From IMG/VR virus record IMGVR_UViG_2718218017_000006, positions 18,956 through 82,955 of that record: a stretch of DNA of 64,000 nt, one strand, 5' to 3'. The DNA is from a virus. The notes below the pieces were generated by a model. That model was not told the DNA's origin. It saw only the letters and a list, made by a program, of their open reading frames with translations, and made no database searches. Shown one piece after another: positions 13,907-44,710 of this stretch. The translations under genes and the position numbers were made by a program. Position 1 is the stretch's first letter. Each line of letters starts with the position of its first letter.

Positions 13907-13957
13907 ACCTCTCACCTTCTTTATGTTATGATTAAATAAAAAGGAGATTTCTCATCT

Positions 13958-14713: not shown

Positions 14714-14833
14714 TTATATTATATACTATTTCTCAATGTATTTTGTCCCAACTTTGTCCTATTTTTGTTTCAAATTTGTCTCATTTTTGTCTCAAGATTT
14801 TTTACGATTAAAAAAGGCAACAGCATTATTTTT

Positions 14834-15316: not shown

Positions 15317-15378
15317 GTACTTATTTAAGCTAAACTTTTATTTGTCTCATATTCTGCATTTTACTATGAAATCGTCAA

Positions 15379-16786
15379 TTATTTAGCCAACTGCTCTATA
15401 TCCCTTCTTAATTCCATGGAATTATATATCATATTCACGTATTTCTTTATCCTAAGTTTTGGCATATTAATACTTTTCCTCTTTCCTTCTATATCCATAT
15501 CAATTTCTTTTATTCGTTCTTTAAGGAATTTAATTTTATTAGAAATCCGTTCTTTCTCTAAATTCCTGACGTTTATATAAGAAACTATGGCCTTTTCACT
15601 TTCCTGTAAATCTTCCTTTAATGAATTTATTTCTTCCAGCAGCTCTTTGACAATTCCTCTGTTTATTTTTTCAGGAAAACCATAGTCAATTTTAATAAGA
15701 GTGATGATTACCGATTCATCCTGTCTCAAAACAAGGAGTATATCATCCTTTACATAGAATCTTTTGATAGTTCCATCTCCACCAAGCCGGTCTTCCGTTA
15801 AAAACTCTGAATAGTTAAATATCTTATTTATATCTCGTATTATCCTGTCATTATTCGTTAACACGTAATTTTCTATATCAAAACTATTAGTTATTCCCTT
15901 AACTCTTTCCACATATCTCTCCTTGCAATGGTTGGTTACATCAACATGCTTAAGTTCTGTTAGCACTGCTTCCATGGAATCCCTCCTTTAATAAGTTTTA
16001 AAAATCGTCTTAATAAACCTTCTCTTTCCAAAAGCATTATATTGATAATAACTGTATTGTATATATCCATTTTTTTAACTATAGCATCTCTTAACCCTGA
16101 TACATTGTATATATCCTTAGCTTTACAGCTTACTTCCACATCTGCAACTCCCCACTCTTTATCTTCAGTAAAGATAAAGCATGAAACCAAATATTTATTC
16201 ATACCACCCCTCCTATTCCCTTAATTTTAATGCCTTTTCCCTATCATATTCTTCTTTCAAATAAAGCCCTGGTTCCGTATATACTTTATCTCCTAGTATC
16301 TTATCCACTTGAGATATCGCAGCTCTATCCGTTTTGGCTTCAATAATTACTTCCTGTTCAACTTTTTTATCATCTTTGTATACTAATATATACTCCATTT
16401 ATTCTCCTAACCTTCTTCCACACATAGGACAATACTTTATCTTAAAATGTCCTTGTGCAAGTCTATGCCTAAATAATACTATTCTGGGTTTATCACCTTT
16501 CAATTGAAATATTACAGCTTCATTAGGTTGTGTTTTTTTACTGTCAGGGCTTTTGTTTATAAGAATGCTTTTTCCATATTCACCGTCACAATATTGGCAC
16601 ATAAGCTATTCCTCCTTAACTTATTTACCTCCCATGCCTGTCCCATTCTTTTTTAAAATTCTTATAACTCTTAGCACTTTCCTTCCTGCAATTCCTGACA
16701 ACTATATAAATGCCTATTATCCCAACTATGCTAATTAAAGCCCATGTTCCTATAAACACATATCCTAATTTTATTAAATGTTCCAT
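15379..16786 (-). CDS. Cluster of small hypothetical phage genes (15379..15975, 15960..16202, 16213..16398, 16399..16602 Cys-rich, about 16625..16786 single-TM)
   Basis: ORF track plus manual translation; abutting ORFs with RBSs. Confidence 0.6.
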
Positions 16787-16880
16787 CTACTCACCTTCTT
16801 CAAATTTCTATGCATAATAAATCCAATTTTGCACATACTATCTTTGTGTTTCATTATGTAATTATGTTTTAATGTATGTG

Positions 16881-17094
16881 TAACATAATTAATCCTTATA
16901 CCGGGGATGGATAATCCCCGGTGTTTAGTTTTACTTGAAATTACAACTAATCTATATTAAATTCCCATGTATAATAACTTATAACTTTACACATACTATT
17001 TATATATCCATTGAATAATTATCTTTTCAATGTTTATCTTTAACATATTAGTTCCTCATACCAGGGGCATATAAATCCCTGGTATTTAGTTTTA
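16881..17094 (-). repeat. Two diverged copies of a hairpin-containing intergenic element
   Basis: TAAAACTAAA-stem-loop-RBS-ATGTTA at 16933->16881 and 17094->17041. Confidence 0.8.
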
Positions 17095-17117
17095 TTGCAA
17101 AGTATTTGAGATACGAA

Positions 17118-18476
17118 CTAACTTACATGTTCTTTTCTGCAACTTTCAGACATATTTGCCTGTGTTAATACTTTTGCCATTACCGGTACTACACTATTTC
17201 CTATTCTTGCAACCCTTTTACTTATTGGATACCTTTTACCAGTATAATCATGATCAATGATATAATTTTCCGGAAAACCTTGACCTAATTTTAATTCTTC
17301 AGGTTTTAACATCCTAAACCATATATCAATTAATTGATATTGCTCTCCTTTAATCACAACCGTTACAAGTCCAAATCTATCTTTAGTAACTATAGTACCT
17401 ATAGGCCCACTCACCCTTTGCCCTATCCCATTTCCATAATACTTGATTAGAAAGGCCGAAATTAAACCGAAATGTCCAGGACTTGTTGTAATGGTGTGTA
17501 TGGGTTCATTTACTGCCTGTCCAGTACCACTCTTATAAAATTTAGTGATAAATGCAGTAACTAATCCATATCGGTTGCTTGTGTCAATAGTCTTTATTGG
17601 TTCATTCAAGCTCTGACCTCTTACATATTCTTTTTTTGTTTCACCATGATATTGGATAAGGAATGATGATGCTATATCATCTGGTAAAAAGTAAGGGTTA
17701 TCATCATTAATAATGAATTTTTCAATTCCTCTTGCAATTCGGTTAAGTGTTTTTTCCTTTAATGGCTTTTCCCTTGTAAATATGGAACTTCCTAAGTCAT
17801 TCCAGTCAATACATTTTGATATTGGTTCCCACTTTTTAAGTCCATTTACACCAAGTTTATTATGTGTGGGTTCCGGCCAAATAATATTTTTTCCATCACG
17901 CCTAAATACTGCATACCATCTATTCCTTGTTGTTGGTGCCCCATAATCAGCAGCTATCAACTCCCTACTGTCAAATTCATAACCTAATCCTTTCATTGCA
18001 CTAATGAATTTCTTATAATCTTCCCCTTTACGTTCTTTTATAGGATGTCCCTCATTATCAAGAGGACCCCATTTTTGAATTTCTTCGACATTTTCCATTA
18101 GGATAACATCTGGCAAAATTTTTCTCGCATGTTTGTATACTGCCCATGGCAATATTCTTAATCCTTTTATCTTGGGTTGCCCGCCTTTTGCTTTTGAATG
18201 ACTTGTACAGTCTGGGGAAGCCCACATAAGTGAAACATGACGACCTTTTGTATATTTAAGCATGTCAACCTTGAATATATCTTCTGTAATGTGCATAGTC
18301 TCTGGATGGTTAGTTTTATGCATTAATATAGCATCAGGATCATGATTTACTGCTAAATCAATCGGTCTCCCCATTGCCATTTCAATTCCCGTAGATGCTC
18401 CACCTCCACCTGCAAAAATATCAATTATAAGTCCTTTATTCATTGTTTTAACCTCCACGTCTGGAGGCATGGCCAT
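17118..18476 (-). CDS. DNA (cytosine-5) methyltransferase
   Basis: DIFAGGGG, WASPDC, MENVEE, R-x-R, RIGNSVVP motifs; three internal repeats in variable region. Confidence 0.95.
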   Translation of the reverse strand: MAMPPDVEVKTMNKGLIIDIFAGGGGASTGIEMAMGRPIDLAVNHDPDAILMHKTNHPETMHITEDIFKVDMLKYTKGRHVSLMWASPDCTSHSKAKGGQPKIKGLRILPWAVYKHARKILPDVILMENVEEIQKWGPLDNEGHPIKERKGEDYKKFISAMKGLGYEFDSRELIAADYGAPTTRNRWYAVFRRDGKNIIWPEPTHNKLGVNGLKKWEPISKCIDWNDLGSSIFTREKPLKEKTLNRIARGIEKFIINDDNPYFLPDDIASSFLIQYHGETKKEYVRGQSLNEPIKTIDTSNRYGLVTAFITKFYKSGTGQAVNEPIHTITTSPGHFGLISAFLIKYYGNGIGQRVSGPIGTIVTKDRFGLVTVVIKGEQYQLIDIWFRMLKPEELKLGQGFPENYIIDHDYTGKRYPISKRVARIGNSVVPVMAKVLTQANMSESCRKEHVS

Positions 18477-18546
18477 GCATTTTATCTAGAATTACTCCGA
18501 TTTTTATTTTTTATTTACTTCACAATAATTTCAGATTATGTCACAA

Positions 18547-18945
18547 CTAATATCCTATAATAGTTTCAGTTCTGTCCATAAAACCACAATCTAATAAATA
18601 TTTGCAGAATTCTTCAGGTGTGGGGTCTTCACTATCATGTTCCCCTAATACATTAATCAAATCATGAAAATTTGACAACGCGCTCCAAGCATCACTGAAT
18701 ATATTCAATTCAGGAACTATTTTTCCACTTAGATTTATCCAATCCACTGTCATTTCACCGGTTGTACCTCCTTGGGAGGAATACAACCCAAAAATTACTC
18801 TATCTACATAATCTGAATTCCTTAAACAAACCTCTCCATACCATGCTCTTGATAATTGAGTAAAACCTTTAATCATGCCTTCGTTTTTATTTTCCATCAT
18901 CCTATCTCCTACACACATCAGCCCCAACCTCTGCACAAGCCTCAC
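18547..18945 (-). CDS. Hypothetical phage protein
   Basis: ORF track. Confidence 0.55.
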   Translation of the reverse strand: MRLVQRLGLMCVGDRMMENKNEGMIKGFTQLSRAWYGEVCLRNSDYVDRVIFGLYSSQGGTTGEMTVDWINLSGKIVPELNIFSDAWSALSNFHDLINVLGEHDSEDPTPEEFCKYLLDCGFMDRTETIIGY

Positions 18946-19267
18946 AGCCTCTATCCACCAACTTTTTATTATGCCTGTGGAATCCCTGGACTATGTCAAA
19001 ATTCTCTCTGAAAAGCTTCGCCAGAATCCCAATACCCACCTGAATAACATCCAGTACCTCTTCCATTATCTTTTTCTTATCTCCAGAGGAGAGAGCTTCA
19101 CACAACTCTCCTGATTCCTCTAAAACTTTATCCTTCCAATCCTCCCAGGTCATTGTACGATTGTCTATCTTATTTCCTCTTCGGTCTATCAATTTCCTAA
19201 GCACCATTAGCTTTAGTTTCAATGTGTTCACCTTCCTAATCAACTTCTGTTTCCAAATTAAATCCAT
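18902..19267 (-). CDS. MazG-like nucleotide pyrophosphohydrolase
   Basis: KVLEESGELCEAL...MEEVLDV (EExxE...EExxD). Confidence 0.75.
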   Translation of the reverse strand: MDLIWKQKLIRKVNTLKLKLMVLRKLIDRRGNKIDNRTMTWEDWKDKVLEESGELCEALSSGDKKKIMEEVLDVIQVGIGILAKLFRENFDIVQGFHRHNKKLVDRGCEACAEVGADVCRR

Positions 19268-20387
19268 CTATAACCATGTCCTCTTTAAGTTCTATAAGTA
19301 AGCACTTCTTTCCCGATTTAACATATACCACCTGTTTTACAGTACTCAAATCCCTGGGACTTATGGTTATATTGGTACTCTCATTTTCTATCTTTATAGA
19401 CTTGCTTCCAAAATCAGGTATTACATTTCTGACCTTAAATTCATAATCCCCTCCACACACTTCTTCAAAAGCACTTTTAACTATTCCTGTGTTTTCAACT
19501 CCACTTTCCCTTAACACTCTGGTTACTTCATTTATATCCAAAATAGGCTCTTCTTCTCCCTCATCTTGAAATTTTTCATTTATCCTTTCGTATATATCCT
19601 GAACTATATCAGGTTTTATTTTTCCCCCTAATGAGATCCCTAAAATGGCATTAAAATTCTCCTTTTCTTCCAAAGCTGTGGGTTTAATATTGCATTCCAA
19701 TACTTTTTCTACGAAAACATTGTTCATCTTCTTTGATTTTGAAGAATAATAAATTATTTTATTTACATCTACATATTCAGATGTAAAGCTTGGAAACATG
19801 AATCCTTCCACAGGAGAATTTAAGTTTATAACCATATCTAATGCAGAATTAGGTTTAAATTTCATCTCCGTATAATCAAACTTCAGCATCTTTTTAGGTA
19901 TTTCCACTTTATTTACACTACACAATATAACTTCTATGGCTTGTACATATTCCTCTAAAGAATCTTTTTTTCTCTTACCATCACTGTAATATTCTGCCTT
20001 TGTAAAACTTATAACCACATCCGTATCATAATTATAGTTTTGAGAAATTTTATCCACTATCTTATCTGCATATTCACTTATTCTTTCCTTTGAATTTAAA
20101 GCAGCATATAATACATGCTGAGTATTTTCTTCTGATTCTTCCTCATTTATATTTTTAAAATCCAACTCAAATATTTTAGAATCCAAAGTTCCTGTAAGCA
20201 CTTTTTTAAAGTTATTTAAATAAAGCTCTCTCTTTTCTACTTCCATCATTTCAAAATATTCCAGTTCTCCTGTTATTATTTCACCGTTATCCTTTTTCAG
20301 GTAAACACTATAGATTTCCTTAACTTTAAGCATATAGCTTCCCAACTTAAATTCTTTTCTTATATCCGATAAATCCTTTTTATTCAC
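19236..20387 (-). CDS. DUF4317-like protein
   Basis: MNKKDLSDIRKEFK, YLNNFKKVLTG, GFMFPSF. Confidence 0.7.
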   Translation of the reverse strand: MNKKDLSDIRKEFKLGSYMLKVKEIYSVYLKKDNGEIITGELEYFEMMEVEKRELYLNNFKKVLTGTLDSKIFELDFKNINEEESEENTQHVLYAALNSKERISEYADKIVDKISQNYNYDTDVVISFTKAEYYSDGKRKKDSLEEYVQAIEVILCSVNKVEIPKKMLKFDYTEMKFKPNSALDMVINLNSPVEGFMFPSFTSEYVDVNKIIYYSSKSKKMNNVFVEKVLECNIKPTALEEKENFNAILGISLGGKIKPDIVQDIYERINEKFQDEGEEEPILDINEVTRVLRESGVENTGIVKSAFEEVCGGDYEFKVRNVIPDFGSKSIKIENESTNITISPRDLSTVKQVVYVKSGKKCLLIELKEDMVIDGFNLETEVD

Positions 20388-20391
20388 AAAC

Positions 20392-20793
20392 TTATACCTC
20401 CTTCAATATTTTCAGTTCTACCTCTGGATACCTCAATTTAAACTGCTTGTACGTCCTCTTCCATTGTGCTGACTCATAACCTTTGGTATCCTCAACACTG
20501 TAGGTACCATCCTTATTCAAAACCAGAAAATCAGCAGTATAAGTTATAGCTCTTTCTTCTCCTTTACCTTCCTGAAGAATAAACTCCGGCTGCAATATAA
20601 ATCCTGCGATTTCCCCAGCATAGAATAAAAGTTTTAACTGGCAGTATCTCTTCATTTCCAGCTGACTCCTGAAATACATTCCATCATGCCATGCACCCTT
20701 ATTCCTGTATTTCTGCTTCTTTACTTTTGGTTTCTCTACCTTCTGACCTCTCTTTTTGAGGTATTCCTGGTATTGTTCCTCTGTCCAGTTCAT
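20392..20793 (-). CDS. DUF1064-like PD-(D/E)xK nuclease
   Basis: FRSQLEMKRY, LQPEFILQ, YTADF...VEDTKG. Confidence 0.8.
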   Translation of the reverse strand: MNWTEEQYQEYLKKRGQKVEKPKVKKQKYRNKGAWHDGMYFRSQLEMKRYCQLKLLFYAGEIAGFILQPEFILQEGKGEERAITYTADFLVLNKDGTYSVEDTKGYESAQWKRTYKQFKLRYPEVELKILKEV

Positions 20794-20859
20794 CCATCTT
20801 CATTCCTATCTGATTACCAAATTTTATGGGTTTGGCTCCTCTTATGATTTTTAAACTAC

Positions 20860-21141
20860 TCATGCCTTGGCTACTTCCTTAAGCTCCCTAAGTTCTGCAA
20901 TAAAATCATCAATATCCTTGAAATCTACTGGTATGGTATTAATATAAGATTTTTGCCTTAAAAGAAATCCACCCTCTTGAATTTCATAACTCATTACCTT
21001 ACCTTGGAGTAATGCTATTTTCAGTCTTTTCCCAGACTTTTCATTAATATCTTTCGCCGGCTCTTCGCAGTCCTTCGTCGGTTTATCCGCCGGCTTCGCT
21101 GGCTTATCGTCTGTTTTCTTGCTTTCCATGTTTGCCGCCAA
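20860..21141 (-). CDS. Hypothetical phage protein
   Basis: ORF track. Confidence 0.5.
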   Translation of the reverse strand: MAANMESKKTDDKPAKPADKPTKDCEEPAKDINEKSGKRLKIALLQGKVMSYEIQEGGFLLRQKSYINTIPVDFKDIDDFIAELRELKEVAKA

Positions 21142-21193
21142 TCCATTTTATGTTGCTTAAATTCTTAAGTTTCACATTATTCCTCCTTACTTT

Positions 21194-22093
21194 CTAACTG
21201 TTTAGTATATCTCTGAGCATCTGGGTTTTTCTAATCCCATTCTTTATCCGTATACTTGAACCTGTATTTTCAATAGGGGAACACATGTCATGGATTAATC
21301 TATCTGCAGTTCTGCCAATATCATATTCACAGTCCCTGTCATATCTCCTCTTAAGTTGATTCATTGACAAATTTGATGTTATAATTAATGGTTTTTTCTT
21401 CCTGTACCTTGAATCCAATATTTGATACATGGTAGCTCTGGACCAATCCGTATTATTTTCAACTCCTATATCGTCAATAATCACCAAATCTGCGTTATCC
21501 AAGCAATTGAGTATGTTCTGCACTCCTTCATCACCGTAGCTTCTGAAACTGCTCTTTATCCTCTCCAAAATTCCAATAGCAGAAACACAAACCACAGGTA
21601 TAAACTGTTTTATAAGTGTATTAGCAATACACCCCGATAAAAATGTTTTTCCGTTACCTGGCTTTCCGTAAATAAGCAGGCCTACGTTTTCTTTCAAGGC
21701 TTTTTCTTTGAAACATTTCACATACTTTATTCCTAGTTCATACATGCTCTCATTGCCCAAAGTATGGTCCCAGCTTTCAAAGGTGAACTCCCTAAACTCC
21801 CTGGTCATTAAGCTGTTATTAAATATTCTCTCAAGCCTAATCTGCTTTTCTCTGGCTTGAGATATACGCTCGTTTTCTTCAAAGGCTTCTTTTTTACACT
21901 TACACATCCTTGGGACTATATAATTTCTCCCCATTAGCCTGACCACTTTTCCTGTAGGTTCACCACAAACAGGACAATTGTCTAGTTCTGTTTCAGAAGT
22001 GGAAACCAATCCCGGAGCTGTCGATCCCCTTTTCTGTATTTTCTTGTTTTGGGTCTCTATCATGACTTTTACCCCCATTCTTGATATTTTCAC
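21194..22093 (-). CDS. DnaC/IstB-like helicase-loader ATPase
   Basis: CPVCG, GKPGNGKT, LVIIDDIG, IITSNL. Confidence 0.9.
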   Translation of the reverse strand: MKISRMGVKVMIETQNKKIQKRGSTAPGLVSTSETELDNCPVCGEPTGKVVRLMGRNYIVPRMCKCKKEAFEENERISQAREKQIRLERIFNNSLMTREFREFTFESWDHTLGNESMYELGIKYVKCFKEKALKENVGLLIYGKPGNGKTFLSGCIANTLIKQFIPVVCVSAIGILERIKSSFRSYGDEGVQNILNCLDNADLVIIDDIGVENNTDWSRATMYQILDSRYRKKKPLIITSNLSMNQLKRRYDRDCEYDIGRTADRLIHDMCSPIENTGSSIRIKNGIRKTQMLRDILNS

Positions 22094-22811
22094 GTTTCCA
22101 TAAATCTTTTATAATGCCTATGCAGTAGCAAAAAGAGTTTATTTTATCATTCTCAGTATCTGGCTTGAATCTATCAAAGGCTTGATCTATACCTCTTAGA
22201 ACTGTATTGAGGGACAGCACCTCATTACAAATCTTCTGGGCGGCTTCTAGTTCACGAGGTTTTAAATTCAGATCCAGCTTTCCTGATTTTTGGCAAAAAT
22301 ATTTTAATGCTATTTCCCATGGCTCTTTTTCAGTAGTAGTAATATTATTATCTTTATTATCATTATTGTTTGTCTCTGTTTGTAATCCATTATCATTCTG
22401 TTTGTAATCTGTTTGTAATCCATTATCGTTCTGGTTATCGGCGGAACTCGTTGATATATCTTCATTTAAACCGTTCTGATTTTGGTACTCTTCATAATTC
22501 ACTACTGTAATCATAGTTTTTCTTTTATCAGTTGATAATTTTATCATTTCTTCGGTAGCAAGGAGCTTTAAAAACCTTCTAGTTTTTTCTGTACCCCACC
22601 CCCATCTTTCCATTAATTTTTTTTGTGACGTTATAAAACTTCCTCTTTTTACATTTATTAATTCACTACCAAGTAAAGTTTTCTTATCCTTATGGTTGGC
22701 TGACAGGAGAAGGTCAATCCAAGCCTGGCCTTTAGAAAAAGGCTTCTCTTGCCATAACCAACTGTATTGAATTTTTCTGTGTACACTTATCCATCCTTTG
22801 CCTTCTCCCAT
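21993..22811 (-). CDS. Phage replication initiator
   Basis: GWISVHRKI, AWIDLLLSANH, KRGSFITS; internal iterons. Confidence 0.85.
   Translation of the reverse strand: MGEGKGWISVHRKIQYSWLWQEKPFSKGQAWIDLLLSANHKDKKTLLGSELINVKRGSFITSQKKLMERWGWGTEKTRRFLKLLATEEMIKLSTDKRKTMITVVNYEEYQNQNGLNEDISTSSADNQNDNGLQTDYKQNDNGLQTETNNNDNKDNNITTTEKEPWEIALKYFCQKSGKLDLNLKPRELEAAQKICNEVLSLNTVLRGIDQAFDRFKPDTENDKINSFCYCIGIIKDLWKRENIKNGGKSHDRDPKQENTEKGIDSSGIGFHF
22376..22433. repeat. Putative replication-origin iterons
   Basis: CTGTTTGTAATC at 22376, 22398 and 22409 inside the initiator gene. Confidence 0.75.
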
Positions 22812-22824
22812 AATCCAATACTCC

Positions 22825-23548
22825 TTAAAATAAATCTATCTTCAAACCTTTATCCGCAATATAGGTAGGCTTTCCTGTAAGCCTCTCTATCTCTTCTTGA
22901 AACTGTGCAGCATTACTATTGCTATCACTAAGATGTAAAAGCACAATATCTTTAACCTGACTTAAATCAGTGACCTTTAAAAATTCTTTTACATTATTCA
23001 GGCTGAAATGAGATTTCAAAAGCCTGTTTCTAAGTACGGGATGTATTAATCCTTTTCAAAGTTTTCATTTACAATATCCATACTGTAGTTGCACTCAATC
23101 ATAATGTGATTAAGTCCTGTAAAGTTATACTGGCAGTAGTAACTATCTGTAACAAAGAGCAGCTTACCCATATCACTATGTTGTATAAGGAAACCTAAAG
23201 GCTCTACTGCATCATGTTCAGCTTCAAAAGGGAGTACAGTAAAATTTCCTATAGAAACCTGATTTTCAGATTTAATTACTTGTGCTCTATAATCCCCAGC
23301 ATCTACTGCCTTAATGTTCCACTGCTGCTGTAAACATCTATTCCGTTACTGATAAGCTCCTTTATGGCCTTGGAATGATCTTTATGTTCATGTGTGACCA
23401 AGCATCCTGCCACATCAATTAAGTTGAAATTCAGTCCCTTTATGATAGTTTTATAGGGCAGTCCACACTCAAGTATCAAAGTTTCATCTCTATTCTGGAG
23501 TAGATAGCAGTTACCTGCCGATCCACTCCCTAAAACTGTAAATTTCAT
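22825..23548 (-). CDS. MBL-fold metallo-hydrolase, frameshifted
   Basis: GSGSAGNCY, THEHKDH, LLHLSDSNS in separate frames. Confidence 0.85.
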
Positions 23549-24487
23549 TAGAATCCTGGTCCTTCTATTTCAGTCTGTTCTGTTGAACTTGGAGTTTGCT
23601 TTTCTTCCACCTTCTCAGGCTCCACATCAATTATCTTCTGATTTTCTGTTTTTTCCTCAGAAGCCTTTATATCTATAGACTTCTTATTTGCCTTATCCTT
23701 TATCTCTTCCTTAACCTCATATTCAACATTACCTACCATGCTCTCCTCATCATAGGTCTTGTCCGTATTGTTAAAAGCTTCAATCAAAAGGTCACTGTCG
23801 TCAGAAGTATTTGCATACATCTTGCAAGCCCTGTTTATCACCGATTTCTTTGCCATTTCATCTGCAAAATTATTATGGGCTGTAGATTTTCCACTTTTAT
23901 AGGCAATACCCTGTCCCCATGCTTTTTTAATCTGGTCGATATTCATTACCTCTGCATGAATGGGACCATTCTCTCCTATTACTACTGCAAAGGCACCCTT
24001 TATTTTATTTGTATCTATATTTTCAAACTTGGGATTGAATTTACTAATTTTCAAAGTTGCTGTATCCAGGTCATAGGTCTGCTCAAATTCATCACCTCGT
24101 AAATGCAATAAGCTTTAATATCTTAACACCTCTTAATCTCTTTGTTACTGCTACAGTTCCCATGTAACTACGCATTAATTGCAACTGGTTTCCGTAAACT
24201 ACAAAATAGCATTGTTTTTTAGCTGGTGTCAGTCCCTGCAGGCACATATCATAAAGAGAACCTATAATTGAATTTTTGGTACATACCTCAAGCGCAGGTT
24301 TATGATCCTTACTTTGTACTTCTTGAAGTTGCAGCCATGCACTGTTTAAGGCATTGGCAACTGAATAATTAGGAGGAAATGCTATATCATTATTTTTTCT
24401 AAGCTCCCCTATTTTTTCCGTTATCTGATTTAAGGCATCTTCTTTGGCTAATGTTATTGCAGTACTTTTATTTTCCATTTTTATCAC
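23548..24487 (-). CDS. recT: RecT-family recombinase, split by two single-base deletions
   Basis: LQGLTPAKKQCYF, LMRSYMG, MAKKSVINRACK. Confidence 0.85.
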
Positions 24488-24504
24488 CTTCCCTTATTCT
24501 CAAT

Positions 24505-26493
24505 TTAACTTGCAAGCTGCTTTTCTTCTGCAAGTTCACCATTTTCAATTCTTAAAGATTTATCTTTACTGCTTACAACTAGATTCACTACTTGACTCTC
24601 TACATCTATAAGTTTTGTGGTGCTTTCCCTGTTATCTATAAATATTGGTGCATTAATTCCGCAGTGCTGAGACAAGGTGTTTATAATATCTATACCGGCA
24701 TTAATCCTTGCGCCTGAATTTAAGTTCGTAGAAAATGGAACTCCATCTACAAGGGGTTCACAGCCCTCTTCAATCCCTCCATTAACCAGTGTTTTAAAGA
24801 ACCTAAACTTAACATATTTGAATTTGGAATTGATACTTGTTTCCATAAGTTCAACCTTGGTTTTTATGAATTCATCACACAAAAACTCTTGTTTCTCTAA
24901 ATTAGCAATCTGCTGACTTAGCTCTTTTTCCTTGTTTAAAAGTTCCTCAATCCTGGCATTTGTTCTATCATTCATTTCCCTGTATCCCAGCTTGTAGTTG
25001 ACCTCCTCAAGTTCTTTTTCTATACTTTCTTTTCTCTCTTTGAGTTCTCTTATCTGGGCATCTGATTCTACTGGTTTTGACAGTTCCGTTTCAAATTCTT
25101 CCACCTGCCTCAATATATCCTGGTATTCCTTATTACTATCAAGGTCTATATTAATTTTGAAATTGTCCATTTCAGATTGAAGTTTATCTTTTTCATTATT
25201 GAGCTTTTCCAGAGAATCCCTAGCATTTTTCAGGGCAGTTTCATTATTCAATACTCTCTCTTTATACTTTTCAAGTTCATTAGATTTTTCTAAACCTTGA
25301 GCTTTTATACTTTTCAAGATTTTGGACTTATTCTGTTTAAAGTTCCCCTCCATCTCTTGCCTGTGGCTTTCAATATCCTCCTCGTCAAAAGGACGGTGGC
25401 AGGTAGGACATATACGTGCATCTTCTGGAAGTTCAAAAACTTTTGCATCTTCCTCATACCACTTGTCCCTTAAATTCTTAACTTCTACTTCTAAGTTGCT
25501 GGCTATTTTAAGGTTGTTGTTTTTCTCCATTTCAAGGGATTTAATATCAAACTTGAGTTCAGCTATTTCCCCATTCAAGCTGCTTATATCCTGGGCTATT
25601 TTATCTCTTCCACTTTCGGCCTTTTCAACTTCCTCATGTTCAATATCTTTTAATTTGGATTTAAGTCCATAAAGTTTATCTTTCTTCATAAATAGTTCAT
25701 CATCAAGTTTTGTCTTATCAAGGAGCTGCTCCTCCACACTTTTCATTCCTGCAACTATTCCACGTTTTCTAAACTCCAAGGCTTTAAAGTCAATATCTTC
25801 TTTTCTTATACTTTTTCTAAGTTCGTCAACTCTAGGAGGTATTGACTCCTTGTCCTTGATCAATTTCTTTCTTGATGCATTTATGCTTTTTTTAAGTTCA
25901 TCTATATCCTTGTTTACAAGAAGTTCTTCCAGAGGTTTCAATTTTCCCTTTGAATCAATAACATTCTGATCTGTAATTTCACCTATCATTCCCATGAGTA
26001 TATTTTTTCTTTCCTGCCATGTCATTTTAGTTGAGAAATGCATTGGATTTGTCAGGAGCTTAAATATATCCTCCTGGATGATTTCATTTATTTTCTTCTT
26101 ATACTCTTTCTCTTTCTTGGGTACATCATCAATATAGTAAGAAGCAGTGGCACCCTGAAACTCTGATTCAGTTTTTCCCTTTGGTTTAACCCACTTTTCT
26201 TTCAAGAGTTTCCTTAACAACATGTTCACACCATTTATCTCAAGTACTGCTTCCACTTCCGTATCAACCCTATGAACTACTTTATTGTCCCCATCAAGTG
26301 GTTGTACATCAAATTTGCTTATGTCCTGGCTGTCTTTGTTAAACAAAAGCCATGTAAAGGCATCAAATATCGTAGTCTTTCCTGTGGCATTGTCACCGTA
26401 GATGTTGGTTATGTTTGAAAAATCTATTGTTAAGTCCTTGATACCTTTGAAATTCTTAAGAGTCAGTTTTTCTAAAACTATTGTTTTACTCAT
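24505..26493 (-). CDS. SMC-like AAA ATPase
   Basis: LKNFKGI, GDNATGKT, long coiled coil, LNSGARI, PIFIDNRE. Confidence 0.9.
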   Translation of the reverse strand: MSKTIVLEKLTLKNFKGIKDLTIDFSNITNIYGDNATGKTTIFDAFTWLLFNKDSQDISKFDVQPLDGDNKVVHRVDTEVEAVLEINGVNMLLRKLLKEKWVKPKGKTESEFQGATASYYIDDVPKKEKEYKKKINEIIQEDIFKLLTNPMHFSTKMTWQERKNILMGMIGEITDQNVIDSKGKLKPLEELLVNKDIDELKKSINASRKKLIKDKESIPPRVDELRKSIRKEDIDFKALEFRKRGIVAGMKSVEEQLLDKTKLDDELFMKKDKLYGLKSKLKDIEHEEVEKAESGRDKIAQDISSLNGEIAELKFDIKSLEMEKNNNLKIASNLEVEVKNLRDKWYEEDAKVFELPEDARICPTCHRPFDEEDIESHRQEMEGNFKQNKSKILKSIKAQGLEKSNELEKYKERVLNNETALKNARDSLEKLNNEKDKLQSEMDNFKINIDLDSNKEYQDILRQVEEFETELSKPVESDAQIRELKERKESIEKELEEVNYKLGYREMNDRTNARIEELLNKEKELSQQIANLEKQEFLCDEFIKTKVELMETSINSKFKYVKFRFFKTLVNGGIEEGCEPLVDGVPFSTNLNSGARINAGIDIINTLSQHCGINAPIFIDNRESTTKLIDVESQVVNLVVSSKDKSLRIENGELAEEKQLAS

Positions 26494-26503
26494 GTTCTAC
26501 CTC

Positions 26504-26806
26504 CTAATCACAATAAGTCCTATTACAATGTGGACAACCTGTTATAAGTTCTTTACCGGCCTTTTCAGTGGATATCCCTGTTTTAAAATCAGCCTTTTCT
26601 AAATCAACTCTTATTCCATCACCAAATTCATCACGCTTCCAGCCAATTTGTTCGTAGATATTTTGATTACAACACCAGCATTTTCCTGAACTTGGTGCAA
26701 AATGTGGATAGTCTTTATCTTCACATAATTTTGCTTGAGCCTCTATAGATTCATTAATATCAAATTTTGCCATTTTAATTCCTCCCATATTTGATTTTTC
26801 CCCCAT
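26504..26806 (-). CDS. Cys-rich (zinc-finger) phage protein
   Basis: CWCC...CPHC. Confidence 0.6.
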   Translation of the reverse strand: MGEKSNMGGIKMAKFDINESIEAQAKLCEDKDYPHFAPSSGKCWCCNQNIYEQIGWKRDEFGDGIRVDLEKADFKTGISTEKAGKELITGCPHCNRTYCD

Positions 26807-35902: not shown

Positions 35903-37219
35903 ATGTACTTGATTGCAAGAGAAATAATACTGGATATTATTGAAGCATTACTTCTTTTAGGAATTTTTCAAGCATTATATAATAAAAAGAAATTTATAAT
36001 ACAGCATAAGATTAGATCAGTATTATTTTGTATACTATATGTTTTTATAGCTTATTGTATTACATTCAATGTAACATTAACTTATCACTCTTTAATTCTT
36101 ATAATTTTATATATTTTATTACTTTCTTACATTACAAAAATAAGAATTTTTGATTCTACAATTATAGTTTGCTTGCTTTTTACAATAGTTTTCAGTACAG
36201 AATTTCTTATTGAAATAATTGAACTATTTATATTAAAAGTAAATTTAAATCAACTAGTTTCAAATTCTACATATTTATCGAGCATTATTTTAATTTCAAA
36301 GTTATTACAAATTTTTATTGTAGCAATGATTTTAAAATTTAACTCATATTTTACTAAACTTAAATTATTTGAAAAAGAAGGGGCTATTTTCGCCAACTTA
36401 ATAATTGAATTAGGTGTATTTTCTACATTCATATTTTGTGTTAACTTTGGTATTTTCCATATAAAAAATATCGAAACCTATAATATTATTATTTTTATAA
36501 TTTATTTTATATTTTTAGTGGCAAAATTCAGAAGCTTAAAAGAAAGACAGCTGGCCGTAAATATAAATATCAATTATAAAATCCAAGAGCAGCAAATTAA
36601 AAATATGGAGGAAATAATAAGTATCATAAGGCAAGAAAAACATGATTTTGCCAACCATATAAATGTTATACAAGGACTGTGTTTATTAAACAAGCCTGAT
36701 ACCGTAGAGAAGATAGATAGTTATGTACGAAAAATTTCAGGTACAATACATTCCTCTTTTAGGTATTTGGATACAGGAAATGATTACATAGATGGTATGT
36801 TATCCATAAAAAATAACTATGCAATGAAAAACAATATTGATTTTAAAGTTATAATTGATGAACCTTTCAGCTCAATAAAAATTAGAGAAGACGAATTGAT
36901 AAGTATTATGAGTAATCTTATAGACAATGCATTTGAAGCATTCACTAAATCAGATGTTGGAAATAAAGAAATATCCATCACCACTTTTAAGGAAGACACA
37001 AACTTTTGTATTGAGATAGCCGACAATGGGGATGTTATCCCTGAAAATATAATAGAAAAAATTTTCAATAGAGGTTTTTCTACAAAAGTTAAACAAAATG
37101 ATCTTCATGGATTCGGATTGTATATTATTAAACAATTAGTTGAAAAAAATAATGGGACTATATCCGTAGAAAGTATTCCAGGAAAAACTAAGTTTGTGAT
37201 AAAGTTTAGAATGGATTAA
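35903..37219 (+). CDS. agrC: AgrC/VirS-like membrane sensor histidine kinase
   Basis: Multi-TM N-terminus; RQEKHDFANH H-box; SNLIDNAFEA, DNG, GFSTK, GFGLYI. Confidence 0.9.
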   Translation: MYLIAREIILDIIEALLLLGIFQALYNKKKFIIQHKIRSVLFCILYVFIAYCITFNVTLTYHSLILIILYILLLSYITKIRIFDSTIIVCLLFTIVFSTEFLIEIIELFILKVNLNQLVSNSTYLSSIILISKLLQIFIVAMILKFNSYFTKLKLFEKEGAIFANLIIELGVFSTFIFCVNFGIFHIKNIETYNIIIFIIYFIFLVAKFRSLKERQLAVNININYKIQEQQIKNMEEIISIIRQEKHDFANHINVIQGLCLLNKPDTVEKIDSYVRKISGTIHSSFRYLDTGNDYIDGMLSIKNNYAMKNNIDFKVIIDEPFSSIKIREDELISIMSNLIDNAFEAFTKSDVGNKEISITTFKEDTNFCIEIADNGDVIPENIIEKIFNRGFSTKVKQNDLHGFGLYIIKQLVEKNNGTISVESIPGKTKFVIKFRMD

Positions 37220-37367
37220 ATAGATAAAGCTCTTACATAGAAAAGTAACTAAAATATGGTATAATATTTACCAAGAGAATAAAAATGTTTTTAGTTAGTC
37301 ACCTTCCGGAATTTATCTCTTACAAAGAGGTCGTTGCGGTTAATAGACAGCAGAGGAGGTGGCAAAT

Positions 37368-37547
37368 TTGAGTGAAACTATCATTGCATTAGGATTTATA
37401 TGTGTCACATCACTTGGCTTAACAGCTATGGTGATTATAGGAACATATTTAAAAGATAGACTTGAAATCAAAGGTAAGTCTTCAGTTCACAAGTTAACTG
37501 AAAATGAAATTTCTATAACTGCTGAAGATAAAAACTCAAAAAACTAA
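37368..37547 (+). CDS. Small single-TM protein, candidate type I toxin (likely TTG start)
   Basis: Hydrophobic N-half, charged tail; GGAGG 8 nt before TTG; own extended -10 at 37257. Confidence 0.5.
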   Translation: MSETIIALGFICVTSLGLTAMVIIGTYLKDRLEIKGKSSVHKLTENEISITAEDKNSKN

Positions 37548-37577
37548 AAATGCACCTTTCCTACAAAGTGCATTTTT
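37546..37577. terminator. Bidirectional hairpin
   Basis: AAAAATGCAC-N12-GTGCATTTTT. Confidence 0.7.
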
Positions 37578-37737
37578 AAACGCTAAAAATAGTTAACTTT
37601 AAAAACCGTAACGGCTTCTTTTAAATATATTATACCACAATTATATTAAATTTAAACTTGTTTAACCTTAATTTTAAAATCAAATTATAAGATGTTTATG
37701 TAGCTATAGTTAATCATTTTATCCTCTTTTAAGTAAT

Positions 37738-37899
37738 TTATTTAGTATTTTTAATATTTTCTCTCCTATCAAATTCAGAGATTAAATATCCAAGCTCCTC
37801 ATATGTCAGTTCTTCTGTCACTGCATCTGCAAGAAGTTCTGCATATCTTTTTTTCAGTTCTTCTTTATTCTTTGGAATTGAGATAATAACTGAATACAT
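37738..37899 (-). CDS. 53-aa protein divergent from integrase (candidate directionality factor or regulator)
   Basis: Manual translation MYSVIISIPKNKEELKKRYAELLADAVTEELTYEELGYLISEFDRRENIKNTK; AGGAG RBS. Confidence 0.7.
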   Translation of the reverse strand: MYSVIISIPKNKEELKKRYAELLADAVTEELTYEELGYLISEFDRRENIKNTK

Positions 37900-38012
37900 T
37901 CAAACAACTCCTGTATTAAAGACATATCCATCTTATGTTATGTTAGACTTACTAATATTGTTACTTCACACTAAATAATTTTAAGTTTGTAAAAAATGAT
38001 ATAATAAAATAA

Positions 38013-40016
38013 ATGCTACAAAGGGGGTTAAAAGTAATGCTAAAGGTAGCTATATACAGCAGAAAATCAAAGTTTACCGGCAAGGGGGATTCTGTAGAAA
38101 ATCAAATAGAAATGTGTAAACAGTATATTATAAATCATTTAGAGGGAGATGTTGATTTTTTAATTTATGAAGATGAAGGCTTTAGTGGCAGCACAATAAA
38201 CAGGCCTCAATTTAAAAAACTAATTCAAGACATAAAACTTAAAAAAATAAATTATTTAGTATGTTACAGATTGGATCGTATCAGCAGAAATGTATCTGAT
38301 TTTTCCTCTACTTTAGAATTATTGCAAAATTACAATGTAAGTTTTATAAGTATAAAGGAGCAGTTTGACACTTCTACACCTATGGGAAAGGCTATGATAT
38401 ATATTGCCAGTGTCTTTGCACAGTTAGAAAGAGAGACGATCGCAGAACGTGTAAAAGATAATATGCTTGAGTTAGCTAAGAATGGTAGATGGACCGGAGG
38501 GAAAATACCCTTAGGATTTACTTCTAAAAGAAAAAAATACAGAGATAAATCTGGTTTAGAAAGAGAATTTTCTATTCTTGAAATAAATAAGGAAGAAATG
38601 GACTTTGTTAAATTTTTATATGAAAAATATTTAGAAGTTGGTAGCCTCCATAAGTTAGAAGTATATATGACTGAAAATCAAATAAAATCAAAAAATAATA
38701 TTTTATTTGAAAAATCTACTTTAAAAATCATCCTCCAGAATCCTATATATGTAAAAGCTAATGCGGCAGTAATTGGATATTTGGAATCGAATGGATGGAA
38801 TATTTATGGTGAAGCAGATAATATTCATTCTCTACTCACATATAATAAAACTAGACAAGTAATAAGAAATGGTAAGCGTACTAAATCCCTAAATCCCGAA
38901 AGTGAACGCTTTGCTTCTGTAAGCAATATAACGGGAGCACTGGAGCCTGAACTATGGTTAAAGGTTCAAAATCAATTTGATAGAAATAAAGATACTTTCC
39001 CTAGATTAGGTAAAACCCATAATGCTTTATTAACTGGTAAATTAAAATGTGGCCGGTGTAAAGAATATATGTTAGTACAACATGGCAGAGTTTCTAAACT
39101 TACCGGAGAAAAACTCTTTTATTATGTATGCTCATTAAAACGAAAATCACACAAGAAATTTTGTGATAATAAAAATGCTAAAGCTGCAGAGCTTGAAAGT
39201 TTAGTATTGTTAAGTTTAAAAAAGCTAGGCAATGAACAAAAACAATTTATGGACAGATTGAAAGAAAATTATAATTCTAAATTAAAAGATGATAGCAAAA
39301 GCGAAAAAATGTTACTAGATAAAGCTTTAACCGAAAAGAAAAATCAAATCGACAATCTACTAAATATGCTTTCAAAAAGTAAGGATATAGAAGATGTAAT
39401 GATTGATAAAATTAAATCTATAAAAAATGAATGCATAGAAATCGAAAAGAGGCTAACTGTTCTTGATGATGAAAGTAAAAAGGATAAAGTAGAAAAAATC
39501 AACTTAGATCTAATAGAAAATATATTATGTGATTGTGCAGTAATAGATGAGCTCCCACGTGTCAAACAAAAGCAAATTATTAATACATTGATAGATGTTA
39601 TATACTGGTACGGAGACAAAAACAACAACGGAAAAGTATTTATAAAATTTATAGGCTCTGATAAAGATGATTTTGAAGAAATTGAATTGCCTGATATAGA
39701 TTTTTCCAATACTATGTTGCAGTTTTGTTCACCTAGCACATGCAGTATGAACAAAACTGCAACATATAGAAATGTATTTAAAGATATTGAAAACTCTACC
39801 TCTACAGTATATTATACACTTCCTGAAAGAACAATTGCACAAAAAATTTATAAATTAAGAATGATCAAAGGATATACCCAACGTGAATTTGCTAAAGTTT
39901 GTTCTATAGGCTATTCTTCTTTATGTAAATATGAAATAGGGAAATCAAAACCTAAGCGTGTTAATTTGGAGAAGATATGCCAAACTTTTAATATGTCTAT
40001 TGATTATTTTTTATAA
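38013..40016 (+). CDS. Large serine recombinase (integrase) with in-frame C-terminal XRE HTH
   Basis: AIYSRKS, YEDEGFSG, YRLDRISR, recombinase domain, CGRC Zn ribbon; C-terminal IYKLRMIKGYTQREFAK...KYEIG. Confidence 0.95.
   Translation: MLQRGLKVMLKVAIYSRKSKFTGKGDSVENQIEMCKQYIINHLEGDVDFLIYEDEGFSGSTINRPQFKKLIQDIKLKKINYLVCYRLDRISRNVSDFSSTLELLQNYNVSFISIKEQFDTSTPMGKAMIYIASVFAQLERETIAERVKDNMLELAKNGRWTGGKIPLGFTSKRKKYRDKSGLEREFSILEINKEEMDFVKFLYEKYLEVGSLHKLEVYMTENQIKSKNNILFEKSTLKIILQNPIYVKANAAVIGYLESNGWNIYGEADNIHSLLTYNKTRQVIRNGKRTKSLNPESERFASVSNITGALEPELWLKVQNQFDRNKDTFPRLGKTHNALLTGKLKCGRCKEYMLVQHGRVSKLTGEKLFYYVCSLKRKSHKKFCDNKNAKAAELESLVLLSLKKLGNEQKQFMDRLKENYNSKLKDDSKSEKMLLDKALTEKKNQIDNLLNMLSKSKDIEDVMIDKIKSIKNECIEIEKRLTVLDDESKKDKVEKINLDLIENILCDCAVIDELPRVKQKQIINTLIDVIYWYGDKNNNGKVFIKFIGSDKDDFEEIELPDIDFSNTMLQFCSPSTCSMNKTATYRNVFKDIENSTSTVYYTLPERTIAQKIYKLRMIKGYTQREFAKVCSIGYSSLCKYEIGKSKPKRVNLEKICQTFNMSIDYFL
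39713..39766. other. attP-like serine-integrase site inside the integrase ORF
   Basis: Perfect 19-bp inverted repeat TATGTTGCAGTTTTGTTCA/TGAACAAAACTGCAACATA around a GCA-CA-TGC core. Confidence 0.75.
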
Positions 40017-40138
40017 AGTGTAAAAGAAAGAAAGGGGTATTACTAAGCCCCTCTTCACCACATTGACCTTACTTTCCCCAGCAATTTCTCCCCTGTGTCT
40101 ATTATCTGGTATAATGGAATAAAAGGAGGCGTGGTTGC

Positions 40139-40333
40139 ATGGCAATGTCTAATAGAGAATTATTTGCTTTAATGTACAATAAAGTATTTGAAATTGCTAA
40201 TAACTATAAGTCTGATTGTATATATGATGAGAAAGTTAAGGAAGAAGTAGCAAGACAGTTCGGTAAGAAAAAACTGATTGGTTCTATCATACTTGGAAAA
40301 AGATTTGAGGGTTGTGGCTCTCTTTTGTTTTAA
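40139..40333 (+). CDS. Small hypothetical protein
   Basis: ORF track; AAGGAGG RBS and TGGTATAAT upstream. Confidence 0.55.
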   Translation: MAMSNRELFALMYNKVFEIANNYKSDCIYDEKVKEEVARQFGKKKLIGSIILGKRFEGCGSLLF

Positions 40334-40468
40334 ATATAGTAAGTTGGTTATAATGGTTAATGTCATAAGAATACTTTAAAGTCTTGCTCATTATTGTTCT
40401 AATTGGTGAAAGCCCTGGGTTTGGTCCTGGGGCTTTCTACAATTAGAACATAATGAAACCGTTAATTC

Positions 40469-40645
40469 TTAAGATAGCTTATTAAGTACTTCTGAATTTA
40501 ATACATTTAATCTATTTTGAAGATTTCTTTTATATGCGTTAGAAACTGGAGGTAAAACAAACTTTAAAAATCTATAGACTAATAAATCCAATCTAGCAAT
40601 TTTTATTTTAATTAATAGTCTAGTTGTTTCATATGAATTAAGCAT
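40469..40645 (-). pseudogene. 58-codon gene with one internal TAA
   Basis: Strong RBS then MLNSYETTRLLIK*KIARLDLLVYRFLKFVLPPVSNAYKRNLQNRL... Confidence 0.5.
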
Positions 40646-40671
40646 ACTTTCACCTCCTTAGACTTTAATAA

Positions 40672-41736
40672 TTATTTTTCATTAAATGATTTATCGTTAT
40701 CTTGAATTTTGTATAAATTACCAGTTAAGAAAAATTCATCTGGTAATTTGCTATTTTTTAACTCAGGTATACCTATCTTTTCTCCATTTAGAATTATTGA
40801 AGGATTGTTCTTAAATAGTTCACTATTTAATTTTTCTAAATCCTGTAGTTTATTCTGTAATTCAGGATCATTTAATTCTAACTTTAATTCAGCTGTTTCT
40901 TTTATTAATTTAATATATTCTCCTCGAACTTTTATATCTCCTTGTATTTTTTCTTGTCGTGCTTTCCAACTAAACTGTTCTTTGTATACTTCATAAGAAA
41001 ACTTTATGACTCCACCAACAATTGCCACCGCCGAAATATTCCCTATTAATGAGGCCAACACAGTTCCTGACTCAATCCTATTATATTTAAGCGGATATTC
41101 CTCATTTGAAATACCTGTAATTAAACATATTATATTATACATATTTTCTATAATTTTTAATGATTCTAACGTAGCATTAAATTTATTATCTTCATTTAAT
41201 AATCTTATAGAAAAGTTACTTGGTTCAGTACCTACATTAAGCGATTCCCTAATCGACTTTATATTATTTATTTCTATTATAATTTTATTATAATAATGAA
41301 TCATAGAATCTATGGTATTTATAATATTTGCATAATCTTGAGATGAATTAACATTAATACTTCTGAAATCATGAATCTTTAAATAATTTTCTTTCATATT
41401 ATTTATAAATTTATCTATTTTTAATATGTTATACACATTATTACCATTTTCATTGATTTTTTCTAATGCGATCCACATATTCATAAAATCAATTTGCATT
41501 AATTTTTGTCTAAAATTTCTATAATGACTATCTGTATTATTTTTCAAAGTTCTGATATTATTTATTTCAGGAGTTCCATTTCCAGATATATTAGATTTTA
41601 ATATAACGTTCATTGATGAATTATACCAATCTTGATGTGATTTTTTACACGTTTTTAATTTATTTATTATATCATTCATTTTTTGTATTTCTTTTTCCAT
41701 ATATTCCACATAGTCCGCAATATCATTATAATTCAA
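40672..41736 (-). CDS. AT-rich hypothetical protein (coiled coil plus one hydrophobic segment)
   Basis: 354-aa ORF with RBS; no recognised motif. Confidence 0.7.
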   Translation of the reverse strand: MNYNDIADYVEYMEKEIQKMNDIINKLKTCKKSHQDWYNSSMNVILKSNISGNGTPEINNIRTLKNNTDSHYRNFRQKLMQIDFMNMWIALEKINENGNNVYNILKIDKFINNMKENYLKIHDFRSINVNSSQDYANIINTIDSMIHYYNKIIIEINNIKSIRESLNVGTEPSNFSIRLLNEDNKFNATLESLKIIENMYNIICLITGISNEEYPLKYNRIESGTVLASLIGNISAVAIVGGVIKFSYEVYKEQFSWKARQEKIQGDIKVRGEYIKLIKETAELKLELNDPELQNKLQDLEKLNSELFKNNPSIILNGEKIGIPELKNSKLPDEFFLTGNLYKIQDNDKSFNEK

Positions 41737-42130
41737 TATAGTTCACTCCTATTATAATATTGTATTCTTAATTTAAATGTCCTATAATAGGAGTATAAAT
41801 AAGAATACATTTTGTTTTAAGAAACCATTAAGATTGGTAGTCGTCATGGTTTCTTTTTTATTGTATAGCTTTTTACCAAAAAGGACAAGTCTTGACAATA
41901 AAAATAAGACCTGCCAGAAAATCCAGCAGGCTTAAAATTATTAAAGTGTCTTTTAGCTCCAATAGGTACCTATAGTTGTAAAACACTACAAAGATAATTA
42001 AATAATAAAAAACAACGAACAAATTAAATGTATTCCTACTCCCTTTAATCTTATTGAATAAACGTAATTATATAGAGAAGAGTATTTTCTCTATATAATT
42101 ACGAGATGAAAATGTGAGGATGATCTAAGA

Positions 42131-42397
42131 ATGAACTTTGAAGAATTTATTAATAAGATTAAAAGAGCAAAACAACCCGAGGTAATAACTTTCAATAACA
42201 AACAGAAGATTATAATACATAATTATGATATATTAAAGAATGATTTAAAATATATGGACAACTCTCAGTTATATAGGTATGAATTAGTTAGAAATGCTGG
42301 ATTTAACCATAGTTTAGCTTTAGAATATGCACTACAAAAATACAGATTATTAGAAAGTTGTTTAAACGAGTCCAATCAAGCACCCTTTACATATTAG
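42131..42397 (+). CDS. Hypothetical protein
   Basis: ORF track; preceded by 17-bp inverted repeat. Confidence 0.55.
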   Translation: MNFEEFINKIKRAKQPEVITFNNKQKIIIHNYDILKNDLKYMDNSQLYRYELVRNAGFNHSLALEYALQKYRLLESCLNESNQAPFTY

Positions 42398-43888: not shown

Positions 43889-44710
43889 CTAATTATTCAA
43901 AAATATACTCCATGTCTCTGGCCTCAAAACCCCATCCGTTGACCTCTCCCAGTTCTTCTGGAGTTCAGTTACTGCTTGGAAAGTTGGTTCGTCATACAAC
44001 ATTTGAGTATAGGAATTTTCTTTTAGATAGCCATATTGTTCTAGTTTCTGTTGAAGCCATAAAACTACATTGGACTTGTGGCCTTTAACAATAATATCCT
44101 GTATTCCTTTCAATGCTGCCATAGTAGCCGGACCTGCTATTCCATCTACAGCTAACCCTGCATTATAATCAATATTCAAGTTGTATTGAAGGGCTTTAAT
44201 TTGCTCTATAAGTGTATTTGGTTTTACTGGTTCATTTGTACCACTTGCTAATCTTGCCTTAAAATCATTCCACTTAGCCCAGTTATTAGCACTCATATTA
44301 TGTGGACAGTCTTTCCTGCTTGCATCATAATGTCTTACTACATTATTAATAGAAACACTATATTTACTCATTAAACTTCTTACAAGCTCCAGAGTATTAT
44401 TTATGGTTGTATCGGAAATATACCCACCAGAATTGCACATTTCAATACCTATGGAATTATGATTTCCTATGCCATATTTGTCGTGGCCATCCCCGCAGTG
44501 CCATGCTGCTTGATTTTCCTCCACAACCTGATATATGGAAGTATCATCCACAAAATAATGTGCAGAAGCCTGTCTATCCCCTCCATTGAAATAAGTAGCA
44601 TTTGCCAGAGCTGTATCCTTATAATTTCCTGTGTCATGCATAACTATAAACTTAATGTCATTCCCTGCTGAATGGTTGTAAGGTGATATTTTTCTTGTGA
44701 TTGGTAACAT
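43889..44710 (-). CDS. Endolysin, N-acetylmuramoyl-L-alanine amidase with peptidoglycan-binding domains
   Basis: IVMHDTG, ASAHYFVD, AWHCGDG, SIGIEMC, RHYDASRKDCP; VDGIAGPAT. Confidence 0.95.
   Translation of the reverse strand: MLPITRKISPYNHSAGNDIKFIVMHDTGNYKDTALANATYFNGGDRQASAHYFVDDTSIYQVVEENQAAWHCGDGHDKYGIGNHNSIGIEMCNSGGYISDTTINNTLELVRSLMSKYSVSINNVVRHYDASRKDCPHNMSANNWAKWNDFKARLASGTNEPVKPNTLIEQIKALQYNLNIDYNAGLAVDGIAGPATMAALKGIQDIIVKGHKSNVVLWLQQKLEQYGYLKENSYTQMLYDEPTFQAVTELQKNWERSTDGVLRPETWSIFLNN

Follow-up and report, generated by a model that had tools for sequence, protein, structure and literature searches.

An attP-like palindrome inside the reading frame of a serine integrase with a C-terminal HTH domain in a Clostridium-type prophage

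The attP sites of serine integrases are about 50 bp long, show dyad symmetry around a non-palindromic dinucleotide and lie beside int (PMC3783163, PMC3556126). The site analyzed here is found in a stretch of DNA of 64,000 nucleotides (from now on referred to as the window), which corresponds to G000 C1:3725481-3789480 in a 4.5 Mb genome consisting of two contigs. Like the attP sites of A118/LI, phiC31, Bxb1, TP901-1 and SPbeta SprA, it is a dyad of ~50 bp with a non-palindromic central dinucleotide, located between lysogeny and lysis modules. As in known LSR systems, its attB shares almost nothing with attP beyond the core (3 nt here), the target is a protein-coding gene and polarity appears to follow the dinucleotide. 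The features of an LSR attP that were looked for, namely inverted half-sites, LSR domains, splitting into attL and attR, a cognate attB and polarity, were all found. However, known LSR attP sites have imperfect arms, while the arms here are perfect (19/19, and 22/22 in G060, a relative from another genus), and the present site is part of the integrase ORF, where it falls in a linker preceding an XRE HTH domain.

Integrase genes that overlap their attP have been described for tyrosine integrases. In Mx8 and SSV, the int ORF crosses attP and integration gives it a new 3' end, which in Mx8 was reported to alter integrase activity (PMC6070905, PMC4383910). The gene described here likewise crosses attP and has its 3' end replaced on integration (667 to 587 aa), similar to Mx8 IntP/IntX and SSV. 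The enzyme is, however, a serine and not a tyrosine recombinase, with different chemistry and site architecture, and thus resembles the Mx8 type in gene layout only. Further, what is removed here is an entire HTH domain, which folds separately and persists as an ORF at the opposite end of the prophage. In integration-dependent immunity (BPs, Brujita, cluster P and M. abscessus prophages), attP is found inside a regulator ORF, and tandem prophages have been described as well (PMC3694055, PMC9934374). What these phages have in common with the present one is a DNA-binding protein whose viral form is not that of the prophage. In those phages, however, the repressor is interrupted, the integrase is a tyrosine integrase and a C-terminal degradation tag is removed, whereas relatives of the present phage have a separate cI-like gene upstream of int and the HTH is separated whole; no degradation tag was identified in the integrase-HTH protein. 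Engineered integrase-RDF fusions, in which a small protein is joined to the C-terminus of a serine integrase via a flexible linker, switch directionality (PMC5737554, PMC12286644). The natural protein also carries a small protein at this position via a flexible linker, but the engineered fusions are artificial and contain a known RDF, whereas any contact of the natural HTH with the integrase would be hypothetical. A non-exhaustive literature search found no attP within a serine-integrase ORF. The attP class itself is well known, and it is the position inside the ORF together with a detachable HTH that appears to be undescribed for serine integrases.

We consider it very probable that a temperate phage of the Clostridium type, ~56 kb in size and here called phage X, has its intact attP in this palindrome, inside its own serine-integrase ORF, and that the site is uncut because X threaded into a related resident prophage, here called Y.

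The palindrome and the integrase-HTH gene

The gene and the elements of the putative attP are as follows.

38013-40016, plus strand: 667-aa ORF, viral (attP-state) form of the integrase; LSR core 1-~552, flexible linker ~553-609, XRE HTH 610-667
39713-39731, no strand: P arm of the putative attP, integrase-proximal half-site; encodes ...MLQFCS; perfect 19-nt inverted repeat
39732-39747, no strand: inner 16 bp, with the inner symmetric GCA/TGC and the ACA core (39738-39740) common with attB
39739-39740, plus strand: central non-palindromic CA dinucleotide at the dyad axis, inside the shared ACA core; predicted crossover and polarity determinant
39748-39766, no strand: P' arm of the putative attP, HTH-proximal half-site; encodes (M)NKTATY; perfect inverted repeat
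39747-40016, plus strand: 89-aa HTH ORF (M579 to stop), a separate gene once the phage is integrated, as seen at the junctions in genomes G015, G011 and G016

A sequence-only reading of this DNA had described a 54-bp palindrome with perfect 19-bp arms about a CA dinucleotide, in frame within the gene, and both a repeat search and a sequence read-out confirmed it. The two 19-nt arms are 100% complementary and separated by a 16-nt spacer, in which GCA-CA-TGC occupies 39736-39743 and the dyad axis falls between C39739 and A39740. Of 27 symmetric positions across the dyad, 22 pair. The palindrome is in frame within the 667-aa ORF and covers residues 567-585. Such symmetry had also been said not to be expected from coding alone. 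This is the only perfect inverted repeat of at least 19 nt (loop up to 30) in the window, and first-order Markov simulations of the window (n = 30) gave none, even at 15 nt. The symmetry is far beyond chance. Across the 4.45-Mb chromosome, perfect inverted repeats of at least 19 nt (loop up to 30) occur at 66 loci. Another perfect inverted repeat in the window, at 42063-42105, has 17-nt arms starting at 42063 and 42087 with a short loop and is located just upstream of an ORF at 42131-42397.

Pfam analysis of the 667-aa ORF identified Resolvase (12-160), Recombinase (194-325), Zn_ribbon_recom (339-399) and HTH_19/HTH_3 (610-667) domains. PF00239, PF07508 and PF13408, the combination that marks an LSR, all score above cut-off. 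In an AlphaFold2 model built on 23 fused relatives, the LSR is folded up to residue ~546, including long helices at 391-508 compatible with a coiled coil, and the HTH (608-666) is modeled at pLDDT 81-88, with residues 559-595 at pLDDT 27-31 (<50). The peptide encoded by the palindrome is thus predicted to be part of a flexible linker, a location in which strict DNA symmetry would be tolerated inside a reading frame. The HTH is most similar to phage repressors of the RstR/DicA type, at scores below the NCBIfam cut-offs.

Split sites, an empty attB and tandem prophages

A search of 60 related genomes for the integrase protein revealed three genomes of the same genus that hold it in two pieces.

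G015: recombinase piece, residues 1-578, 99% identical; HTH piece, residues 559-667, 69 kb upstream on the same strand
G011: recombinase piece present; HTH piece ~50 kb away, in the same arrangement as in G015
G016: recombinase piece present; HTH piece on a separate contig

In all three, the protein breakpoints lie near residue 576 and the DNA breakpoints, located by blastn, within window positions 39738-39742. The LSR and HTH pieces are circularly permuted and 50-70 kb apart, as expected of a circle opened inside the ORF. Single arms joined to host DNA, which the sequence-only reading had proposed to look for, are present in these genomes as attL- and attR-type junctions. At the attL-type junction, host sequence ending in ...GATACGGGAC is joined to ATGCAGTATGAAC..., which leads into the HTH gene; at the attR-type junction, the LSR gene ending in ...TTCACCTAGCAC is joined to A[C/T]GTAAAACTTATGACC... 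of the right host flank. Splits at 39739, also anticipated, were found in the metagenome runs X5 and X8, where contigs with 99-100% identity to the window break off at 39738/39740 and run on into exactly the host flanks seen in these genomes. In these two runs as well as in the three genomes, the P arm stays with the LSR gene at attR and the P' arm with the HTH gene at attL. The intact, unsplit site is crossed by a 2,424-nt contig of run X1 with no differences, and one contig of run X10 bridges attP.

When the G015 host flanks are joined, they give a continuous match (94.5%) to G000 C1:2304520-2306603. The predicted attB is therefore present in G000, intact and empty, with its ACA core at C1:2305048-2305050 in the context GGG-ACA-CGT, identical to the flanks used elsewhere. 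attB and attP share the 3-nt core, and neither arm is related to the host flanks; a comparison of the attB and attP half-sites by eye yielded no convincing common motif outside the core. The target is the gene of a 425-aa GIDA/TrmFO-like FAD protein, entered at about codon 260. In the three same-genus genomes (L025, G015 C1:1990000-2000000; G000 equivalent C1:2304520), the GIDA-like gene is interrupted twice and thus present in three pieces, with codon ~84 holding another large element that ends in a 43-45%-identical LSR and codon ~260 holding the phage with the integrase described here (LSR-A). The GIDA-like gene is a double integration hotspot.

The mechanism of LSRs has been established for A118, phiC31 and Bxb1 and serves as the model for the following steps. 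An integrase dimer would bind each of attP and attB, 2-nt staggered cuts would be made at the central CA, and subunit rotation followed by religation would produce attL and attR. Based on symmetry, cleavage would occur exactly at CA and not at AC within the ACA core. Integration would cut Int to 587 aa and free the HTH as an 89-aa ORF.

In G000, the site is found in a different context, which comprises the following segments.

Window 13202-26505, no strand: copy 1 of a 13.3-kb block common to both prophages (self-blastn)
G000 C1:3795046-3808278, outside the window: copy 2 of the 13.3-kb block (self-blastn)
Window 26506-64000 and beyond the window end, no strand: phage-X-specific DNA flanking attP left and right; the LSR-A elements integrated at attB in G011 and G015 are colinear with it

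Self-comparison of G000 showed two colinear prophages in tandem at 3.69-3.84 Mb, with attP located within the second phage. The block (13,314 bp, 97.3% identity; 3738682-3751985 and 3795046-3808278) repeats with a period of 56,364 bp, and the two prophages are more diverged elsewhere. Phage-X DNA starts with lysogeny and early genes, followed by LSR-attP-HTH and by minus-strand lysis and tail genes, including an amidase gene at 43889-44710; on both sides of attP it is homologous to the ends of the attB-integrated elements in G011 and G015. Prophage Y has its own LSR (39% identical, G000 3817225-3818907). The single prophage found at the site of Y's LSR in G015 is colinear with G000 3709-3738 kb, followed by the block and 3808-3826 kb; the segment at 3752-3795 kb, with LSR-A, attP and HTH, is absent from it. 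The earlier statement that the junction is in the attP state, excised or tandem, rather than attL/attR is thus supported, with tandem being the applicable case, as the two prophages are arranged in tandem and the arms are split in relatives.

We propose that circular X joined Y by Campbell-type homologous recombination within the shared 13.3-kb, 97%-identical block. Homologous entry of this kind would leave attP untouched, which would explain why it is uncut: X entered via the neighboring prophage and its own site went unused. A phage threaded into a related prophage illustrates how attP can persist uncut in a chromosome. On this chromosome, 1.46 Mb separates attP from an attB of the same orientation, so that recombination between the two would excise 1.46 Mb, and integrase expression would be strongly selected against. 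We thus assume that the integrase must be silent or inactive in the G000 lysogen. The 13.3-kb direct repeat should also allow homologous excision of a 56.4-kb circle, making the array potentially unstable.

The tandem arrangement is taken from one assembly, and its main competitor, which we regard as unlikely, accepts a true attP but considers its chromosomal position an assembly artefact, with X being an extrachromosomal or excised circle wrongly threaded into Y via the block. The copies of the block are 97.3% identical over 13.3 kb, the genome already includes a separate 58.6-kb phage-like contig (C2) with its own LSR and attP-like site, and contigs of another genome, G012, end inside the att core, indicating that assemblies break or mix at such sites. 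However, a difference of ~2.7% between block copies separates them in most assemblies, and a free circle normally yields its own contig, as C2 did. In addition, the flanks outside the block are colinear with the single G015 prophage, as a real insertion predicts. The spanning X1 contig possibly stems from the same strain and would look alike for a tandem and a free circle.

In four metatranscriptome libraries from one mud study (X1-X4), window positions 39240-40239 are represented at 95-100% of sampled words. The X1 contig covers the LSR 3' end, attP and HTH, and the fused message may therefore be transcribed, with DNA carry-over or the presence of this very strain also being possible.

Conservation and polarity of the site in relatives

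The best 120 homologue clusters include 22 fused forms with HTH (~645-663 aa, 51-98% identity), nearly all from metagenome assemblies; the rest are forms of ~557-620 aa, many of which come from isolate genomes. Fused relatives have the same temperate-phage gene order as phage X, with a cI-like gene preceding LSR-HTH and oppositely oriented amidase/holin genes following it. For 8 of the 10 fused relatives examined, the strongest dyad symmetry of the linker is found at the same codon and in the same codon phase, with L080 and L082 having weak symmetry at the homologous place. The arm sequences vary between relatives and are complementary within each. In an ungapped alignment of the ten sites, 72.3% of cells are paired, compared with 32-41% in slid controls, and 14 pairs are changed on both sides, compared with 2-4 in the controls, a number reached by 0 of 500 shuffles. 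Compensatory changes thus preserve the dyad symmetry at this codon even in diverged relatives (51-72% identity).

Compensatory changes that keep pairing would also be expected of an RNA stem, and the palindrome has a predicted RNA fold of -29.1 kcal/mol (z = -6.8 vs shuffles) and is spanned by a contig from an RNA library. It could accordingly be read as mainly an RNA hairpin controlling translation or stability between the integrase and HTH parts, with DNA symmetry being secondary. We hold this to be very unlikely, as an RNA element does not explain why recombination, in each of five independent sources, has broken the sequence precisely at the dyad axis. Moreover, the arms are 50-70 kb apart in the integrated state, where no hairpin is possible, yet both are conserved. 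There is no T-run 3' of the hairpin, a terminator scan gave no call at this position, and promoter and terminator predictions across 37200-40700 were at chance level. An RNA side-effect in the attP state may exist alongside the attP role. That the site is a hybrid attL/attR junction, or that it pairs with a second copy elsewhere as the substrate of an invertase or resolvase, is almost certainly wrong: it does adjoin a serine recombinase gene at the apparent boundary of two prophages, but every relative has phage DNA in both arms, and these arms are unrelated to the host flanks. In addition, G000 retains an intact attB and contains no further arm copy with fewer than 3 mismatches, which excludes an inversion or resolution pair. 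An attP kept in frame within the integrase gene remains the reading that we favor.

The central dinucleotide sets the polarity of integration in serine integrases such as phiC31 and Bxb1. In G012 (72% identity) and G060 (65%), the integrase is split and the halves rejoin in frame. The G060 halves rebuild a perfect 22+TG+22 palindrome, TG being the complement of CA. The G060 element interrupts the host gene at the same codon but is inverted, whereas in the G000 type (CA) the HTH is co-directional with the host gene. In this one natural comparison, insertion orientation thus seems to follow the central dinucleotide, and the combination of TG with an inverted insertion is the behavior expected if the dinucleotide alone sets polarity.

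In G012, contigs C39 (L089) and C21 (L087) both terminate within the att core; the two ends have CATG in common, and joining them there regenerates attP. This suggests either a mixed integrated/excised population in the culture or an assembly-graph break at the site. A count of in-frame stops over the linker (0 vs 33 and 90 off-frame, 562 codons) was dropped as evidence for in-frame fusion because the ten relatives had been chosen for being fused and the frame is partly frozen by the fixed arm spacing; the unbiased data on frame consist of G012 and G060 only, both of which are in frame. 'Full-length' matches in IMG/VR were also rejected as fusions, most being an LSR plus an unrelated upstream cI-like HTH, with L054 as the only true fusion. 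A search with linker plus HTH only returned 4 matches, a number limited by the word prefilter and not a measure of the spread of the fusion, and megablast of the region against phage records gave no match.

Fate and possible roles of the HTH domain

Since attP is located inside the integrase ORF, in the linker before the XRE HTH, recombination alters the protein. The attP state encodes Int-linker-HTH as one 667-aa protein and the integrated state a 587-aa Int and a free 89-aa HTH ORF. The integrase of integrated relatives ends in ...SPST[R/C]KTYDLLLPLR-stop (587 aa), with an 11-residue tail encoded by the host at attR. At the other prophage end, the 5' fragment of the host gene in G015, G011 and G016 terminates in ...LLDTGHAV-stop, and its TGA overlaps the ATG of the HTH ORF (GTATGAAC); the HTH frame opens only just upstream of this ATG. 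The reversed orientation in G060 means that coupling of the HTH to the host gene is not general.

A more tentative hypothesis, which we consider possible rather than probable, is that the HTH tail is a sensor of recombination state, with Int-HTH present in the free or excised phage and a shorter Int plus a free XRE protein in the prophage, the two states differing in integrase activity, directionality or repression. If so, the free HTH in the G000/G015 orientation would be read from the interrupted host gene via the overlapping stop-start (ATGA), and the system would represent a serine-integrase counterpart of both Mx8 IntP/IntX and integration-dependent immunity, conserved across a Clostridium phage lineage. 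C-terminal tuning has so far been known from engineered Int-RDF fusions and tyrosine integrases; the present gene makes it testable whether fusions of natural origin at the C-terminus adjust the activity of a serine integrase or the control of lysogeny. Across the many diverged members of this lineage, the integrase gene is one that its own reaction rewrites, a whole DNA-binding domain being attached or detached depending on integration state. The system also provides a natural serine integrase for which attP, attB, attL, attR, the crossover core and a polarity rule could be mapped purely by sequence comparison, and the unusually symmetric attP may offer an orthogonal integrase tool for clostridia.

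Two further LSR loci were noted. The phage-like contig C2 of G000 (58,581 bp) encodes a 48%-identical LSR at about 5900-7545 (minus strand), whose ORF stops (...KKKLLL-stop) just before a palindrome with 16-nt arms (ATTGCACTTTGGTACA / TGTACCAAAGTGCAAT), which is the usual arrangement. C2 probably represents a phage that was excised or exists outside the chromosome, and its own attP would be intact and conventionally placed. In L044 (IMGVR_UViG_2585428079_000001, 2087-4300), the left-arm peptide KLQFSSTSTCK of a 64%-identical LSR is joined to unrelated sequence followed by a stop, and a different HTH gene lies ~180 nt downstream; the arrangement may reflect an attR-type junction with a different target, or else rearrangement of the site.
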